Source of the DNA: a virus
Lineage: Duplodnaviria > Heunggongvirae > Uroviricota > Caudoviricetes
Virus record (IMG/VR): IMGVR_UViG_2693429774_000009
Span: 1 to 11,560 of that record
DNA length: 11,560 nt
Strand: one strand, 5' to 3'
Of this stretch, positions 1,082 through 10,242 are shown piece by piece (the stretch's first letter is position 1; every line of letters begins with the position of its first letter). The notes beneath the pieces were generated by a model, which was not told the DNA's origin, did no database searches, and worked only from the letters and a program-made list of their open reading frames with translations. The translations under genes were made by a program, and so were the position numbers.

Positions 1082-1151
1082 AGAGGAACAGAGTTAAAAA
1101 GCCGGAAGCGGAATCAAATCACAGGATGACCATCTGCCAGTGGCAGGTCAT

Positions 1152-1178
1152 AAAAAAAAGGCTGCGCAATGCGCAGCC
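1152..1178 (-). terminator. Rho-independent terminator for minus-strand transcripts leaving the cargo cassette
   Basis: + strand AAAAAAAA (1152-1159) then GGCTGCGC (1160-1167), loop AAT, GCGCAGCC (1171-1178); on the minus strand this is an 8-bp GC stem followed by a U-run. Confidence 0.5.
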
Positions 1179-1607
1179 AGAACTCACAAGGAAAATGATA
1201 AAAGGAATAACACTAGTGATGTACGCATGGCGCCTCCCGCTAAGTTCTGCAATGATCAAACAGAACTCGCTACGTGCCCTTAAAACTCGATCATTTAGCC
1301 CCTCCAAGGAGGATTCACCATGCGGTTGATTTTTTAATAAACAGTAAACAAAAAAGTCAAGAATTATTCATTCTGTTCTTTCATCATCGGCCACAGCAAT
1401 ACCACAATGCCGCAGACCAGAGCGCCATCAGTCAGTACCAACATTATCCTGCTGGTGAAATCCATCATCACCATCACTAAAAGCAGGATCACAACAGCAA
1501 GCAGACACAGTTTATAAAACAATGTTCAGAAAACGCATTCAGCATGCCTAAGGTTCTATTCCTACGAATAGCCAACTTGCAACTTAAAATATTATTTATG
1601 CAGCCAA

Positions 1608-2366
1608 TTAAATTCTGGTCCTTACAATATCAACCTGAAGATTCTTATATTGTGCTGATTGATAAATGACAAACCTTTTACTACCTGCATTGAAAGAAGT
1701 AGACAAAACCAGACAATTATCATAACGAGCAAGAACATAATACCAACCATCATTATAATTAATCATTTCATATTCTTTCTTAAACTGTGGTTTGTAATAT
1801 CCTGTCAGAAATGAAAAAAGCCAAAAATATGCCACAAAAGCAATCATCACAATCTCAAAAAAATGTTTTTTTATAAATGGCTTATCATAGAAGCATGATA
1901 CCGATAAAAATCGCCCATAAGATCTTATCGAAATTGTAACCGCCAGCGCAATCGCTGCTGACAGTAGCAAAAGAGGTACCTGAATCTTCTGTCTCAATAT
2001 AGAAAACTCAATAATTGCCGGCACAAACAATAATTCCACAGCAAAATAAAGGCGAAATACATTTAGCTCTTGCATAGAATGTTTTCTTTTCACTGCGAAA
2101 AAGAATACAACACCAATACCCCAACCGATAAGAAATATAGCAATGACGATAACTGCAAAAAATAAACTTCTGGCAACATCATCAACACCTGCACCTACAA
2201 TCCACCATGGGAAGCCGTAGTAAAAAGAAGTACCCCATCCATAGAAATAAGCACTCCCCCATCCAAGGCATCCCATGTAGGCAATAAAAAGTGAAGAACT
2301 CCTGAGCAGCGCACCATCCTTCATAACCACCCCAATACAAGATGATAACATTGGCTTACAACTCAT
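1608..2366 (-). CDS. Hypothetical polytopic inner-membrane protein (about 5 predicted TM helices, aromatic-rich, about 55-aa soluble C-terminal tail); late-operon cargo
   Basis: 252-aa ORF, AT-rich relative to flanking phage genes; hydrophobic segments e.g. SLFFAVIVIAIFLIGWGIGVVFFFAV, VPLLLLSAAIALAVTISI, FEIVMIAFVAYFWLFSFLTGYY; located directly downstream of Q and the pR'-like promoter where lambda has S/R. Start may be the internal Met at 2324 (GGGGTGG RBS). No family recognised. Confidence 0.6.
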   Translation of the reverse strand: MSCKPMLSSCIGVVMKDGALLRSSSLFIAYMGCLGWGSAYFYGWGTSFYYGFPWWIVGAGVDDVARSLFFAVIVIAIFLIGWGIGVVFFFAVKRKHSMQELNVFRLYFAVELLFVPAIIEFSILRQKIQVPLLLLSAAIALAVTISIRSYGRFLSVSCFYDKPFIKKHFFEIVMIAFVAYFWLFSFLTGYYKPQFKKEYEMINYNDGWYYVLARYDNCLVLSTSFNAGSKRFVIYQSAQYKNLQVDIVRTRI

Positions 2367-2532
2367 AACAAAAGCAATTCAATGCCGTCAAGAGGTTACA
2401 GGCTAAAAAAACTCTATTACATAGCAGCCAGCATGTTTACCGTACAAGTACAACTCAGGGCATAAAAACTACTCGGCGGCAGGTTATTGAGACTCATCAA
2501 TGACATGTAAAAAACGCCCATTATTGGTGTCA

Positions 2533-2561
2533 AGTTTCCCCAAAGTTATTCAAAAAGTCAA
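2533..2561 (-). promoter_or_regulatory. pR'-like late promoter (Q-utilisation region) reading leftward into the cargo cassette
   Basis: Minus strand reads TTGACTTTTTGAATAACTTTGGGGAAACTTGACACC, closely resembling lambda pR' TTGACTTATTGAATAAAATTGGGTAAATTTGACTC; -35 TTGACT at 2556-2561, -10 homologue 2533-2538. Homology to lambda is lost a few tens of bp downstream. Confidence 0.45.
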
Positions 2562-2603
2562 TATTATGCCGTTAATATGTTGCCATCCGTGGCAATCATG
2601 GCG

Positions 2604-3227
2604 CTAACGTGTGATCGCATTCAAAATGTTGTCTGCGATTGACTCTTCCTTGTGGCATTGCACAACCAGAGCGTCATACAGCGGCTTAACAGTGCGTGAC
2701 CAGGTGGGTTGGGTAAGGTTTGGGATTAGCATCGTCACAGCGCGATATGCGGCGCTTGCTGGCATTCTTGAATAACCGACGCCTTTACATCTTCCGCACT
2801 CTTTCTCAGCAACTCTCCCCCACAGCTCTGTTTTGGCTATATCAACCGCACGGCCTGTACCGTGGCAATCTCTGCATCTTGCGCCCGGCGTAGCGGCACT
2901 ACGGCAATAATCCGCATAAGCGAATGTTGCGAGCACTTGCAGTACCTTTGCCTTAGTATTTCCTTCAAGCTTTGCCACGCCACGGTATTTCCCCGATACC
3001 TTGTGTGCAAATTGCATCAGATAGTTGATAGCCTTTTGTTTGTCGTTCTGGCTGAGTTCGTGCTTACCACAGAATACAGCCATTCCGAATCCGGCTTGTG
3101 ATTGCGCCATCCCCATAGCAGCCATCACATCAGTACCGGAAAGAGAGTCAGAAGCCGTGGCCCGTGGTGAGTCGCTCATCATCGGGCTTTTTGGCGAATG
3201 AAATTTAGCTATGCTTTCGAGTCTCAT
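2604..3227 (-). CDS. Q: Late-gene antiterminator Q (lambda-type, 207 aa)
   Basis: [94 protein letters not shown]... is essentially lambda Q including the Cys-rich zinc-binding region. Confidence 0.95.
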
Positions 3228-3586
3228 GCGCCTTCTCCCTGTACCTGAATCAATGTGAGGTTTCCGCAGAACACTGCGCCAGTATCGATATACATCTGGT
3301 TGGCAAATTTGAGTGGTTTCACTGCTGGCGTATGACCAAAGATGAACGTGTCCGCGCCTTTGATTTCTTTCACGATCCCGTCTTGTGAGTTGCTGATTCG
3401 TTCGCGGTTCCAGATTACCTGCTGATGATCAACTGGCTTTCCAAACTCGTATTTATCACAAGGATAGCAATCCCCCAATTTGAGGGATGTTTTATCCCTC
3501 GTTTTAGGGGATTTTCCCTCGTTTTGAGGGATACACCATTCTGAGATGTTTTTATTTGGTCCAAACATGCCGCCTTGCTGCTTGAT
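3224..3586 (-). pseudogene. In-frame deletion fusion: internal fragment of replication initiator O (ori iteron segment) joined to the C-terminal half of a lambda-type Ser/Thr protein phosphatase (orf221/PP-lambda)
   Basis: Minus-strand frame [42 protein letters not shown] (lambda O, iteron-encoded) continues directly into [78 protein letters not shown] (metallophosphatase C-terminus); ends 4 nt into Q start as in lambda. P, ren and nin genes are absent. Confidence 0.7.
3471..3532. repeat. ori-lambda iterons (three O-binding repeats; fourth iteron and the AT-rich region deleted)
   Basis: Three tandem copies of the reverse-complemented lambda iteron: TCCCCCAATTTGAGGGA (3471-3487), ATCCCTCGTTTTAGGGGAT (3494-3512), TCCCTCGTTTTGAGGGAT (3515-3532); deletion junction falls in the fourth iteron (TATCC at about 3462-3466). 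Confidence 0.8.
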
Positions 3587-3751
3587 AAGAGGGATTGGAT
3601 TCCAAAGTTCTCAATGCTGCTTGCTGTTCTTGAATGGGGTGTCGTCGACGACGACATGGCTCGATTGGCACGACAAGTTGCTTCGATTCTCACCAATAAA
3701 AAACGCCCGGCGGCAACCGAGCGTTCTGAACAAATCCAGATGGAATTCTGA
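3587..3751 (+). pseudogene. cII: cII 3' fragment (residues about 44-97) on the inverted segment
   Basis: + strand translation [54 protein letters not shown]-stop matches the lambda CII C-terminus. Confidence 0.8.
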
Positions 3752-3783
3752 GGTTATTACTGGAACTATCAACAGGAGTCATT

Positions 3784-4077
3784 ATGACAAATACAGCAAA
3801 AATACTCAACTTCGGCAGAGGTAACTTTGCCGGACAGGAGCGTAATGTGGCAGATCTCGATGATGGTTACGCCAGACTATCAAATATGCTGCTTGAGGCT
3901 TATTCAGGCGCAGATCTGACCAAGCGACAGTTTAAAGTGCTGCTTGCCATTCTGCGTAGAACCTATGGGTGGAATAAACCAATGGACAGAATCACCGATT
4001 CTCAACTTAGCGAGATTACAAAGTTACCTGTCAAACGGTGCAATGAAGCCAAGTTAGAACTCGTCAGAATGAATATT
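3784..4077 (+). pseudogene. O: O 5' fragment (N-terminal 98 codons of replication initiator O) on the inverted segment
   Basis: MTNTAKILNFGRGNFAGQERNVADLDDGYARLSNMLLEAYSGADLTKRQFKVLLAILRRTYGWNKPMDRITDSQLSEITKLPVKRCNEAKLELVRMNI matches the lambda O N-terminus with its RBS AGGAGTCATTATG; homology stops at 4077. Confidence 0.8.
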
Positions 4078-4206
4078 CCACCTGCTGATCTGCGACTTAT
4101 CAACTCCCACAGCTTCCGCTGTCTTCTCAGTTCCAAGCATTGCGATTTTGTTAAGCAACGCACTCTCGATTCGTAGAGCCTCGTTGCGTTTGTTTGCACG
4201 AACCAT
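4078..4206 (-). pseudogene. cII: cII 5' fragment (first 43 codons) with native RBS
   Basis: Minus strand ATG at 4204-4206 preceded by GGAAATACTTACAT; MVRANKRNEALRIESALLNKIAMLGTEKTAEAVGVDKSQISRW then diverges at the inversion junction and stops after 7 more codons. Confidence 0.8.
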
Positions 4207-4285
4207 ATGTAAGTATTTCCTTAGATAACAATTGATTGAATGTATGCAAATAAATGCATACACCATAGGTGTGGTTTATTTTGAT

Positions 4286-4317
4286 GCCCTTTTTCAGGGC
4301 TGGGATGTGTAAGAGCG
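4286..4317 (-). promoter_or_regulatory. nutR (boxA CGCTCTTAC and boxB GCCCTGAAAAAGGGC) between cro and cII
   Basis: + strand shows reverse complements GCCCTTTTTCAGGGC (4286-4300) and GTAAGAGCG (4309-4317), matching lambda nutR boxB and boxA. Confidence 0.6.
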
Positions 4318-4325
4318 GGAATGTC

Positions 4326-5678
<1,353 letters not shown>

Positions 5679-5728
5679 TCCCCACCTCAATCTCGATAAC
5701 AAAAAAACAAACTATTTTCCGTTTAAAA

Positions 5729-5796
5729 ACAATGGAGTTTGTTTTTCACGCCCCTTTTTACAATATCTCTTGTTTACAACATACAATCTTCCTTGT
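5729..5796. promoter_or_regulatory. Left operator OL1-OL3 (434 type) with pL reading rightward toward N
   Basis: ACAATGGAGTTTGT (5729-5742), ACAATATCTCTTGT (5760-5773), ACAATCTTCCTTGT (5783-5796), all ACAA-N6-TTGT; possible -35 TTTACA at 5773-5778. Confidence 0.7.
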
Positions 5797-5842
5797 AATT
5801 TTAAGCCATCAGCAGGACGCACTGACCACCATTGAAGGTGAG

Positions 5843-5872
5843 GCTCTTAAAAATTAAGCCCTGAAGAAGGGC
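5843..5872 (+). promoter_or_regulatory. nutL (boxA-like GCTCTTAA and boxB GCCCTGAAGAAGGGC)
   Basis: GGCTCTTAAAAATTAAGCCCTGAAGAAGGGC matches lambda nutL boxA/boxB, located in the N leader. Confidence 0.65.
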
Positions 5873-6029
5873 AGCATTCAAAGCAGAAGGCTTTGGTGTG
5901 TGTGATACGAAACGAAGCATTGGCCGGAAGTGCGAATCCGGATTAGCTGCCAATGTGCCATTGCGGGGTGTTTTCGTTCAGGACTACGACTCCCACACAC
6001 AACCAAAGCTAACTGACAGGAGAATCCAG

Positions 6030-6353
6030 ATGGATGCACAAACACGCCGCCGCGAACGTCGCGCAGAGAAACAGGCTCAATGGAAAGCAGCAAATCCCCT
6101 GTTGGTTGGGGTAAGCGCTAAACCAGTTAACCGCCCTATTCTCTCGCTGAATCGCAAACCGAAATCACGAGTAGAAAGCGCACTGAATCCGATAGACCTT
6201 ACGGTGCTGGCTGAATACCACGAACAGATTGAAAGCAACCTGCAACGTATTGAGCGCAAGAATCATCGAGTTTGGTATAGCAAGCCAGGTGAGTTCGGTA
6301 TAACTTGTCAAGGAAGACAAAAGGTTAAAGGGGAATCCATTCCATTGGCATGA
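6030..6353 (+). CDS. N: Antitermination protein N (lambda type, 107 aa)
   Basis: MDAQTRRRERRAEKQAQWKAANPLLVGVSAKPVNRPILSLNRKPKSRVESALNPIDLTVLAEYH... including the arginine-rich boxB-binding motif; ORF-track call 5898.. starts at a spurious upstream Met. Confidence 0.9.
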   Translation: MDAQTRRRERRAEKQAQWKAANPLLVGVSAKPVNRPILSLNRKPKSRVESALNPIDLTVLAEYHEQIESNLQRIERKNHRVWYSKPGEFGITCQGRQKVKGESIPLA

Positions 6354-7231
6354 GGTACGTAATGAAGAAGATTGATTACAAGTCCATACCAAAACCAATA
6401 GACTCAGCATCAGAGCGAAAAAAACACAAAAAAGAGGCTGAAAAATTAGCAAATTATATCAGTTTTATTAGAAACAATGCTCACGGCGATGGCGACAAGA
6501 AGTTGCTTTCAGATGCTCGGACCCAAGCGTTCGGTATACTTCGTAAGCAGATGCAATATCGTCTTCATCCTGGCTACATAATTGAAATTCGCCCTACTGA
6601 AAGACAATTGTTCTTATTAAACTCTGTCTTTGACTTTGTAAACGTAGTTGGAGATCTTATCGACAGGTCTGTAGATAAGGATCCTGATACAAATAGTTTT
6701 CTTCTAACAAATAAAGAATACTTATATGGTAAATTCGGTATAAACGGATGGCAAAAATATGTACGCTTCTTACGTGCATTCGTTGATGCGTATAAAAATT
6801 CCGACATGATTTATACATATTTGCCTGGTGGTGATAATTGTACGCTTTCGGCAGACAATAGAATATTCATACCTGTACTTGGTCTTGGGCTGATTAATGC
6901 AGTAAATGAAAAAGATGTTATAATTGTTAAGCAGTGGCGAAAATATGAGGGATATAGATATCTGCCATGCTTTGATATATTAAAAATACAGAATAAATTC
7001 TATGTAAAAATTAAATATAAAGAAGATATTTTCTTCCTCAGAAAAAACATAGATCTTTTACAAGAACTTTCTGGTACAATAGATGTCATCTTAGGTTCTA
7101 GGTTTATAAAAGAACTGAAAGAAAGCAGGTCTTTCTCTCGTGTAGAGATAAGCGAGTCAGAGTTATGGGGTATATCAAATAATCCTGTAAACCACGCTCA
7201 CCAACGAAACCCAAACAAAAAGTGGTCATAA
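6350..7231 (+). CDS. Hypothetical protein (293 aa; likely true start at 6362 giving 289 aa), AT-rich cargo gene replacing the lambda ral/sieB region
   Basis: Long ORF with ATG overlapping N stop (ATGA) and a second ATG at 6362 preceded by GAGG; markedly lower GC than flanking N and ea10; Lys/Ile/Asn/Tyr-rich, no TM segments, no motif recognised. Confidence 0.6.
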   Translation: MRYVMKKIDYKSIPKPIDSASERKKHKKEAEKLANYISFIRNNAHGDGDKKLLSDARTQAFGILRKQMQYRLHPGYIIEIRPTERQLFLLNSVFDFVNVVGDLIDRSVDKDPDTNSFLLTNKEYLYGKFGINGWQKYVRFLRAFVDAYKNSDMIYTYLPGGDNCTLSADNRIFIPVLGLGLINAVNEKDVIIVKQWRKYEGYRYLPCFDILKIQNKFYVKIKYKEDIFFLRKNIDLLQELSGTIDVILGSRFIKELKESRSFSRVEISESELWGISNNPVNHAHQRNPNKKWS

Positions 7232-7373
7232 CCCGCTCAGGCGGATTTCATTTTCACGCAAACAACAGAATAAACACAGCGCTGTGTATTCATTCCAACG
7301 AGTGAATACACGGAGCAATGTCGCTCGTAACTAAACAGGAGCCGACTTGTTCTGATTATTGGAAATCTTCTTT

Positions 7374-7400
7374 GCCCTCCAAGATGAGGGCGATTTTTTA
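7374..7400 (+). terminator. Putative rho-independent terminator between the cargo ORF and ea10
   Basis: GCCCTC (7374-7379) loop CAAGAT, GAGGGC (7386-7391) followed by GATTTTTTA. Confidence 0.35.
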
Positions 7401-7419
7401 TCTGTGAGGATATGAACAG

Positions 7420-7788
7420 ATGTCAAACATCAAAAAATACATCATTGATTACGACTGGAAAGCATCAATAGAAATTGAAATCGACCATGACGTAATGACA
7501 GAGGAAAAACTTCACCAGATTAATAATTTCTGGTCAGACTCTGAATACCGACTCAATAAACACGGCTCTGTATTAAATGCTGTATTAATCATGCTGGCGC
7601 AACATGCTCTGCTTATAGCAATTTCAAGCGACTTAAATGCATATGGTGTTGTGTGTGAGTTCGACTGGAATGATGGAAATGGTCAGGAAGGATGGCCTCC
7701 AATGGATGGTAGTGAAGGAATAAGAATTACCGATATCGATACATCAGGAATATTTGATTCAGATGATATGACTATCAAGGCCGCCTGA
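7420..7788 (+). CDS. ea10: Ea10-like protein (lambda early gene, 122 aa)
   Basis: MSNIKKYIIDYDWKASIEIEIDHDVMTEEKLHQINNFWSDSEYRLNKHGS... recalled as lambda Ea10; position upstream of cIII matches lambda. Confidence 0.8.
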   Translation: MSNIKKYIIDYDWKASIEIEIDHDVMTEEKLHQINNFWSDSEYRLNKHGSVLNAVLIMLAQHALLIAISSDLNAYGVVCEFDWNDGNGQEGWPPMDGSEGIRITDIDTSGIFDSDDMTIKAA

Positions 7789-7860
7789 GCGCGGCGTTAC
7801 CGCATACCAATTACGCTTCACTCGAGGCGTTTTTCGTTATGTATAAATAAGGAGCACACC

Positions 7861-8025
7861 ATGCAATATGCCATTGCAGGGTGGCCTGTTGCTGGCTGCC
7901 CTTCCGAATCTTTACTTGAACGAATCACCCGTAAATTACGTGACGGATGGAAACGCCTTATCGACATACTTAATCAGCCAGGAGTCCCAAAAAATGGATC
8001 AAACAATTATGGCTATCCAGACTAA
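7861..8025 (+). CDS. cIII: CIII, FtsH inhibitor stabilising CII (54 aa; below ORF-track size cutoff)
   Basis: ATG at 7861 after AAGGAG; translation [54 protein letters not shown]-stop matches lambda CIII. Confidence 0.85.
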   Translation: MQYAIAGWPVAGCPSESLLERITRKLRDGWKRLIDILNQPGVPKNGSNNYGYPD

Positions 8026-8137
8026 ATTCACTATCGCCACTTTTATTGGCGATGAAAAGATGTTTCGTGAGGCCGTCGACGCTTATAAAAAATGGATATT
8101 AATACTGAAACTGAGATCAAGCAAAAGCATTCACTAA
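7994..8137 (+). CDS. kil: Kil (host killing / FtsZ inhibitor, 47 aa)
   Basis: Internal Met of ORF 7868..8137: [47 protein letters not shown] matches lambda Kil; overlaps cIII 3' end as in lambda. Confidence 0.8.
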
Positions 8138-8508
8138 CCCCCTTTCCTGTTTTCCTAATCAGCCCGGCATTTCGCGGGCGATATTTTCACAGCTATTTCA
8201 GGAGTTCGGCCATGAACGCTTATTACATTCAGGATCGTCTTGAGGCTCAGAGCTGGGCGCGTCACTACCAGCAGATAGCCCGTGAAGAGAAAGAGGCAGA
8301 ACTGGCAGACGACATGGAAAAAGGCCTGCCCCAGCACCTGTTTGAATCGCTATGCATCGGTCATTTGCAACGCCACGGGGCCAGCAAAAAAGCCATTACC
8401 CGTGCGTTTGATGACGATGTTGAGTTTCAGGAGCGCATGGCAGAACACATCCGGTACATGGTTGAAACCATTGCTCACCATCAGGTTGATATTGATTCAG
8501 AGGTATAA
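8092..8508 (+). CDS. gam: Gam, RecBCD inhibitor (138-aa long form; short form would start at 8212)
   Basis: ...[60 protein letters not shown]...[10 protein letters not shown] matches lambda Gam. Confidence 0.9.
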
Positions 8509-8513
8509 AACGG

Positions 8514-9299
8514 ATGAGTACAGCACTCGCAACGCTGGCAGGGAAGCTGGCTGAACGTGTCGGCATGGATTCTGTCGACCCACAGGAACTGATCACCACT
8601 CTTCGCCAGACGGCATTTAAAGGCGATGCCAGCGATGCGCAGTTCATCGCATTGTTGATCGTCGCCAACCAGTACGGCCTTAATCCGTGGACGAAAGAAA
8701 TTTACGCCTTCCCTGATAAGCAGAACGGCATCGTTCCGGTGGTGGGCGTTGATGGCTGGTCCCGCATCATCAATGAAAACCAGCAGTTTGATGGCATGGA
8801 CTTTGAGCAGGACAATGAATCCTGTACATGCCGGATTTACCGCAAGGACCGTAATCATCCGATCTGCGTTACCGAATGGATGGATGAATGCCGCCGCGAA
8901 CCATTCAAAACCCGCGAAGGCAGAGAAATCACGGGGCCGTGGCAGTCGCATCCTAAACGGATGTTACGGCATAAAGCTATGATTCAGTGTGCCCGTCTGG
9001 CCTTCGGATTTGCTGGTATCTATGACAAGGATGAAGCCGAGCGCATTGTCGAAAATACTGCATACACTGCAGAACGCCAGCCGGAACGCGACATCACTCC
9101 GGTTAACGATGAAACCATGCAGGAGATTAACACTCTGCTAATCGCCCTGGATAAAACATGGGATGACGACTTATTGCCGCTCTGTTCCCAGATATTTCGC
9201 CGCGACATTCGCGCATCGTCAGAACTGACACAGGCCGAAGCAGTGAAAGCTCTTGGATTCCTGAAACAGAAAGCCACTGAGCAGAAGGTGGCAGCATGA
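8514..9299 (+). CDS. bet: Bet (Red-beta single-strand annealing protein, 261 aa)
   Basis: [72 protein letters not shown]... matches lambda Bet. Confidence 0.95.
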
Positions 9300-9976
9300 C
9301 ACCGGACATTATCCTGCAGCGTACCGGGATCGACGTGAGAGCTGTCGAACAGGGGGATGATGCGTGGCACAAATTACGGCTCGGCGTCATCACAGCTTCA
9401 GAAGTTCATAACGTAATAGCAAAACCCCGCTCCGGAAAAAAGTGGCCTGACATGAAAATGTCCTACTTCCACACCCTGCTTGCTGAGGTTTGCACCGGTG
9501 TGGCTCCGGAAGTTAACGCTAAAGCGCTGGCCTGGGGAAAACAGTACGAGAACGACGCCAGAGCCCTGTTTGAGTTCACTTCCGGCGTGAATGTTACTGA
9601 ATCACCGATCATCTATCGCGACGAAAGTATGCGTACCGCCTGCTCTCCAGATGGTTTATGCAGTGACGGCAACGGCCTTGAACTGAAATGCCCGTTTACC
9701 TCCCGGGATTTCATGAAGTTCCGGCTCGGTGGTTTCGAGGCCATAAAGTCAGCTTACATGGCCCAGGTGCAGTACAGCATGTGGGTGACGCGAAAAGATG
9801 CCTGGTACTTTGCCAACTATGACCCGCGTATGAAGCGTGAAGGACTGCATTATGTCGTGGTTGAGCGGGATGAAAAGTACATGGCGGGTTTTGACGAGAT
9901 GGTGCCGGAGTTCATCGAAAAAATGGACGAGGCACTGGCTGAAATTGGTTTTGTATTTGGGGAGCAATGGCGATGA
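9296..9976 (+). CDS. exo: Lambda exonuclease (Red-alpha, 226 aa)
   Basis: [65 protein letters not shown]... matches lambda Exo with a few substitutions; 4-nt overlap with bet. Confidence 0.95.
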
Positions 9977-10155
9977 AGCATCCTCACGATAATATCCGGG
10001 TAGGTGCGATCACTTTCGTCTACTCCGTTACAAAGCGAGGCTGGGTATTTCCCGACCTTTCTGTTATCCAAAATCCACTGAAAGCCCAGCGGCTGGCTGA
10101 GGAGATAAATAATAAACGAGGGGCTGTATGCACAAAGCATCTCCTGTTGAGTTAA
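9967..10155 (+). CDS. Small hypothetical protein, lambda orf60a-like (62 aa)
   Basis: ORF overlapping exo stop (ATG...TGA coupling), [62 protein letters not shown]; recalled as the small ORF following exo in lambda, identity not verified. Confidence 0.55.
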
Positions 10156-10242
10156 GAACGAGCATTGAGATGGCACATATGGGCGCAGATAGCACATGCA
10201 GACGTAACCAATATTCGAATTGAAGAACTGAAAGAACACCAA

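Follow-up and report, generated by a model that had tools for sequence, protein, structure and literature searches.

We find that the replication region of this 11,560-bp stretch of DNA, hereafter the window, contains an in-frame fusion of the lambda-type replication gene O, cut within the fourth iteron of its origin (ori), to the 3′ end of the phosphatase gene ninI. Taken as a whole, the evidence makes it very probable that this O::NinI fusion is a non-functional scar of prophage decay left by a microhomology-mediated deletion. The feature is real, was correctly read in the initial annotation, and represents ordinary prophage decay with no new mechanism.

The window comprises bases 2–11561 of contig CYDV01000007.1 from Escherichia coli assembly GCA_001284905.2 and is the remnant of a phage-434-like lambdoid prophage. 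It is oriented opposite to the lambda map, with int at the right end, adjoining torS. Leftward from int the gene order is xis, exo, bet, gam, kil, cIII, N, cI and cro. Beyond cro come the rearranged cII/O region, then the fusion and Q, then two small genes of the late region, and lastly a fragment of Rz and remnants of tail-fibre genes. Intact genes include int, xis, cI, N, kil and Q. The closest phage is 434 (OL657226.1), with 99.9–100% identity to window positions 3462–7504 (99.88% over 4076–7504) and 99.0% identity at the 3′ end of ninI, which indicates that the early region of the ancestor was essentially that of phage 434. The features that matter for what follows are these, in window coordinates.

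2604–3227, minus strand: Q, an intact lambda-type antiterminator of 207 aa (Pfam Antiterm, E 6e-58), its DNA 96.3% identical to lambda.
3224–3466, minus strand: codons 144–221 and stop of NinI (the lambda nin221-type Ser/Thr phosphatase), with the shared TATCC at the 5′ end.
3224–3568, minus strand: residual 114-aa ORF starting at O Met105; O residues 105–140, then NinI 144–221.
3462–3466, minus strand: deletion junction TATCC, placed by base-by-base alignment with lambda, RM14723 and phage 434.
3462–3588, minus strand: O codons 99–140, including ori iterons 1–3 and a residual 4 nt of iteron 4; 100% identity with phage 434 positions 35416–35542.
3587–4077, plus strand: inverted segment of 489 bp plus an ambiguous 2-bp AA/TT at each end; 100% identical to positions 9978–9488 of the Z1323HEC0011 locus, reversed.
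3700–3727, minus strand: oop intrinsic terminator, from a terminator scan (12-pair stem with 6 G-C pairs, T run) and the 434 oop RNA annotation, transferred by coordinates.
3784–4176: 130-aa ORF with O codons 1–98, overlapping the inverted segment.
4078–4206, minus strand: cII codons 1–43, severed by the inversion (Pfam Phage_CII, positions 1–44 of 91; BLAST block 4076–4319).
4326–5277: 434-type immunity region, with cro (4326–4541, minus strand) and cI (4645–5277, plus strand) both intact; from the OL657226 annotation.

A complete relative of the element, in the E. coli genome Z1323HEC0011, lies between torT and torS and is ≈23 kb long; lambdoid phages are known to integrate at this site (PMC8065619). 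Its tail-fibre remnants are interspersed with cargo consisting of espJ, a gene with a DUF1076 domain, cif, nleH, an nleC fragment and nleB2. The ≈23-kb element has no head or tail genes and no holin, and its lysozyme gene is a fragment only. At the left of the window (positions 1–1082), tail-fibre remnants lie immediately next to a fragment of an Rz-type lysis gene, and the whole head and tail region is therefore gone.

Comparison of the window with the lambda genome (J02459) by BLAST gives two blocks that abut and share the five bases TATCC: window positions 2529–3466 match lambda 44584–43647 (Q and the C-terminus of nin221, 96.3% identity), and positions 3462–3588 match lambda 39104–38978 (O and ori, 99.2%, E 2.5e-61). 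The window retains a single copy of TATCC, and the parental copies lie at O codons 139–140 and NinI codons 142–143, corresponding to positions 35538–35542 and 39416–39420 of the 434 record. Homology at the junction is exactly 5 bp, with neighbouring bases that differ between the two parental sites on both sides in lambda, RM14723 and 434 alike. A short direct repeat at both parental sites, one copy kept and no longer homology are the marks of a microhomology-mediated deletion, and the illegitimate recombination suspected from the initial reading of the junction is thus tied to an exact repeat. The fusion is in frame, with O codons 139–140 (Y-P) joined to NinI codons 142–143 (Y-P). The 114-aa ORF is the translatable remainder of the fusion after the inversion, its frame staying open upstream to the inversion breakpoint at 3588; PHROGs profiles divide it into O-like residues 1–40 and NinI-like residues 35–113.

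On the O side, matches to the iteron consensus are found at 3515–3532, 3495–3512 and 3471–3488 on the minus strand, three in all against none expected (200 shuffles). Of the fourth iteron, which is annotated in both J02459 and OL657226, just ATCC survives, and the sequence beyond it is that of ninI; the proposed course of the O frame, through three iterons and into the phosphatase inside the fourth, is therefore confirmed to the base by the alignment and the iteron search. A lambda-type origin consists of four iterons and the remainder of ori to their right, and here that right part is deleted. The N-terminal part of O binds DNA and its C-terminal part binds P. The DNA-binding domain (Pfam Phage_rep_O) is complete in the uninverted, 218-aa form of the fusion, covering profile positions 2–95, and is split in the window, where the 130-aa ORF covers positions 2–78 of 95 and the remainder lies on the opposite strand. 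The C-terminal domain (lambda O ≈141–299), which recruits P and DnaB, is missing, as O ends at residue 140.

On the NinI side, the remnant is identical to the intact NinI of RM14723 at 78 of 78 residues, with 100% identity as far as the junction in the alignment, and to that of lambda at 75 of 78, and the phage 434 allele carries the same TATCCTTGTGATAAA sequence. The remnant matches the NinI-like family phrog_246 at positions 310–386 of 417. Its assignment to the C-terminal end of the phosphatase therefore stands, and the extent first given to it, a C-terminal half, does not: 78 of 221 residues is about one third. The metal-binding motifs GDxHG, GDxxDRG and GNHE, which lie at residues 19, 48 and 74 of the intact RM14723 NinI, are all absent from the fusion, in which a Pfam scan gives no Metallophos match. 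At its 3′ end the fusion abuts Q as the corresponding gene (orf221) was said to do in lambda: its stop codon overlaps the Q start by ATGA at 3224–3227, like nin221 and Q in lambda (43886–43889).

Measured against 434 the deletion is 3,878 bp long (35543–39420), against lambda 4,547 bp, and against the shorter nin region of the RM14723 type ≈3.5 kb, so that its length depends on the reference; 434 is the better measure, and the lambda figure of 4,547 bp taken alone is misleading. By each of the two phage alignments the event is the multi-kilobase loss, from mid-ori to mid-phosphatase, that had been proposed, with P, ren and nin genes gone. Relative to 434, the window lacks O codons 141–299 and, within ori, iteron 4 together with all that lies to its right; also missing are P, ren, orf26, an annotated terminator, ninB, a gene for a methyltransferase, ninE, ninF, ninG and NinI codons 1–143. 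The terminator that follows ren (OL657226 positions 37035–37065) lies within this interval, so that, as in a nin5-type deletion, the P-to-Q terminator has been removed.

The deletion and the inversion have very different distributions. The deletion junction is crossed by one of 5,426 complete E. coli genomes, that of Z1323HEC0011. Its element is 99.9% identical over the window, and there the fusion is uninverted, an ORF of 218 aa without interruption (positions 9125–9781 of that locus), next to which cII is intact. A protein with exactly this 218-aa sequence is found on 107 public contigs, and is thus unbroken in at least 107 assemblies; it is the sole member of its 90% cluster. One identical sequence on 107 contigs indicates that the deletion is shared and recent, and from copies without sequence variation selection cannot be judged. 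The two ORFs specific to the inverted form, by comparison, are found on a single NCBI contig and also in an independent assembly by Logan of run ERR178178, which probably sequenced the isolate of GCA_001284905.2. We infer by parsimony that the inversion is the later event and specific to this isolate.

The inverted segment contains cII codons 44–97, the pO-oop unit with its terminator, and O codons 1–98. No inverted repeat that could mediate the 489-bp inversion is present at the breakpoints, where the only overlap is the 2-bp AA/TT; the nearest repeats of 7–9 nt are 20–30 bp out of register. As a result of the inversion, pO, oop and the oop terminator (reading from 3727 to 3700) lie in the path and direction of transcription from pR to Q. 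Three structural changes and just a handful of base substitutions distinguish the window from Z1323HEC0011. Besides the inversion, the window lacks 1,772 bp at 1081/1082, containing a SASA-family esterase gene and an rrrD fragment (TA at the junction), and 1,900 bp at 10177–10179, containing five small genes between exo and xis (ATA at the junction); both of these sites are outside the Logan contig, and their support is one assembly. These two extra microhomology deletions point to continuing decay, and all four junctions, those of the ori-to-ninI deletion, the inversion and the two further deletions, have 2–5 bp of microhomology.

These observations are most simply accommodated by the following series of events. 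A 434-like prophage residing between torT and torS would have recombined illegitimately, once, at a pair of TATCC sequences, one lying in O within ori iteron 4 and its partner in ninI codons 142–143, with the loss of ≈3.9 kb. The junction would have come out in frame by chance, a one-in-three outcome, giving a 218-aa O(1–140)::NinI(144–221) protein with the usual ATGA overlap between its stop codon and the start of Q. Afterwards, in the isolate of the window, an inversion of 489 bp, with only 2 bp of homology at its junctions, split both cII and the fusion, leaving the 114-aa and 130-aa ORFs, and turned the oop terminator to face transcription from pR.

Established lambda biology predicts that such an element would be unable to start lambda-type replication either in cis or in trans, because it has neither P nor the C-terminal domain of O and has lost the right part of ori. 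Neither the window nor the ≈23-kb element of Z1323HEC0011 contains a second replication module, a P gene or another helicase loader, so that a search for a replication module elsewhere favours the original reading. That reading had attributed the death of replication to the deletion and the inversion together; the prediction stands, with the deletion alone expected to suffice, and the part given to the inversion does not, as this is a separate and later event in one isolate. The chimera itself is probably best regarded as a non-functional pseudogene, because the phosphatase part lacks the catalytic metal-binding motifs and replication start is predicted to be lost. No observation contradicts the deletion itself. 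A limit on the assignment as a pseudogene is that in the 218-aa form the DNA-binding domain of O is complete, and the start codon of O and three iterons are retained. Recombination with lambdoid prophages resident in the same cell can moreover rescue defective ones (PMC2669165), which likewise limits the claim of non-function, and deletions and other defects are usual in lambdoid prophages that carry effectors (PMC2669165). Loss of replication is one defect among many in this element. It had further been suggested that the cargo genes are more stably kept as a result of the deletion, which is plausible; the idea is weakened by the intact excision functions and by the many other defects of the element, and with int, xis, cI and kil intact, excision and loss would still be possible.

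Two alternatives would deny that any such deletion took place in the prophage. The chimera might be a natural mosaic gene from the replication module of a functional phage, a reading to which the uninterrupted frame and the RefSeq name of the 218-aa form, "replication protein", lend some colour. None of 50,697 phage records, however, carries the fusion as one piece; all best matches stop at nucleotide 419, which is the TATCC, and with the window as query the matches end at 3466. Both halves are 99–100% identical to separate 434 genes, at loci 3,878 bp apart, the origin is cut within iteron 4, the element is without P or another helicase loader, and the protein cluster consists of a single sequence. 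The breaks at TATCC in the phage records and the separate 434 loci effectively refute a natural mosaic gene, the probability of which we put close to nil, and this comparison too comes out in favour of the original reading. An assembly artefact might be suspected in a window that forms the first 11.5 kb of a short-read draft contig and shows three structural differences from its relative among a handful of substitutions. The deletion junction is nevertheless present in a complete genome and on 107 contigs, and the breakpoints have no flanking repeats that could mislead an assembler. The Logan assembly of ERR178178 is 100% identical to window positions 1115–8238, spanning all three junctions, and by reproducing the inversion as well as the deletion junction establishes that the inversion is present in the reads. 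We therefore reject an artefact, which is extremely improbable given the complete genome, the 107 contigs and the independent Logan assembly.

The other two alternatives accept the deletion and give it a use; that either the uninverted chimera has been co-opted, as a dominant-negative blocker, or the shortened pR-to-Q path, as an SOS-triggered, lysis-free effector switch from pR′, we regard as unlikely. In the first case, O(1–140) would bind iterons without recruiting P or DnaB and so block the replication of incoming phages with a lambda- or 434-type ori, a type common to lambda, 434 and 21 and different from that of P22 or 80. The 218-aa form does have a complete Phage_rep_O domain and is intact and identical on 107 contigs, but the same lack of variation means that there is no sign of purifying selection, and chance alone would put one junction in three in frame. 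In addition, the gene lies downstream of pR; in a lysogen this promoter should be kept repressed by the intact 434 cI, and the protein would thus be absent when needed; in the isolate of the window the inversion has destroyed the fusion. This makes a domesticated blocker highly improbable. The second case is a nin5-like benefit, in which loss of the terminators between P and Q would link pR to Q, so that SOS induction leads to read-through from pR′ into effectors on the same strand without lysis. The 434 terminator after ren is indeed within the deleted interval, Q is intact, and in Z1323HEC0011 nleB2, nleH and cif lie on the Q strand 4–8 kb downstream of Q, with the holin gene and most of the lysozyme gene gone. 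On the other hand, N and nutR are intact and antitermination would bypass the terminators anyway, several remnants and possible terminators intervene between Q and the effectors, and the inverted oop terminator in the window stands in the way, contrary to what selection for read-through would produce. Retention of the deletion for such a benefit appears very unlikely, and decay through a microhomology deletion remains the preferred explanation.

The window can be compared with several well-characterized systems. With phage 434 it shares the immunity region, Hex, the protein containing a Nun C-terminal peptide, N, and an O gene with lambda-type iterons; it differs in lacking the 3,878 bp between the TATCC sites, in the inverted 489-bp segment, and to the right of NinI, where the window has a full lambda-type Q and 434 has a Q fragment followed by lpxR and a Q82-like gene. 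In lambda, the classical nin5 deletion takes ≈2.8 kb from the interval between P and Q; terminators are lost with it, and late gene expression no longer depends on N. Like nin5, the deletion described here eliminates the nin region, and with it the terminator following ren, from the interval that separates Q from the replication genes; unlike nin5, the left end of which lies after P, it begins inside O, is larger, and also takes part of ori, the O C-terminal domain and P, with replication predicted to be lost. Any nin5-like N-independent expression of Q and the late genes would, in the window, be opposed by the inverted oop terminator. The ori-minus mutations of lambda are small in-frame deletions of iterons, or changes in the adjacent A+T-rich sequence, that inactivate the origin in cis. 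The fusion resembles them in that the iteron array within O is damaged with the O frame left open, but in the present case nothing remains of the right part of ori or of the C-terminal domain of O, and the defect would therefore act both in cis and in trans. Finally, the element resembles defective lambdoid prophages with effector genes in EHEC and EPEC, for example the Sp prophages of strain Sakai (PMC2669165), in having type III effectors beside tail-fibre remnants, multiple deletions, and integration at a known lambdoid site, here torS/torT; at ≈23 kb and without morphogenesis genes, it is more reduced than most Sp prophages.

The value of the finding is mainly for annotation and for understanding how prophages erode. 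Both deposited names are misleading: the 114-aa remnant is recorded as "Serine/threonine-protein phosphatase" (CTW89116.1) and the 218-aa chimera as "replication protein" in RefSeq (WP_024222065.1), and judged from their domain content neither is likely to have the activity named. A literature search found no description of the O::NinI fusion or its junction. The TATCC junction provides a specific marker for the lineage of torS/torT elements that carry it, and together the rearrangements form a clean, datable decay series in an effector-carrying prophage, in which a shared ori-to-ninI deletion is followed by an isolate-specific inversion and two deletions.

Several further features of the window were recorded. 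A 134-aa ORF at 5274–5678 (plus strand) overlaps the end of cI and occupies the position of lambda rex; by position it is the 434 gene annotated as Hex, said to shield the repressor from RecA-dependent cleavage. Directly 3′ of N, a 289-aa protein is encoded at 6362–7231 (plus strand), whose final ≈20 residues (NPVNHAHQRNPNKKWS) match a termination factor of the Nun type at its C-terminal end (phrog_5632); its homologue in the 434 record is termed "Nun C-terminal peptide-containing protein". The remainder of this protein matches only phrog_12139, a family of unknown function, and the protein has no Pfam or PADLOC match; PADLOC likewise gave no match for the three accessory ORFs searched. The sole Rfam match above the gathering score in the window is Lambda_thermo, the cIII thermoregulator element, at 7848–7906 (plus strand, 88.5 bits), and the Rfam scan has no match in the fusion region. 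Downstream of Q, at 1364–2351 (minus strand), are a 247-aa protein and a 52-aa DUF3927 protein. The former carries a precomputed Pfam label of TfpB, belongs to phrog_1521, of unknown function, and had no match in our own Pfam scan. Proteins identical to this pair occupy the same position in an otherwise different prophage of strain RM14723.
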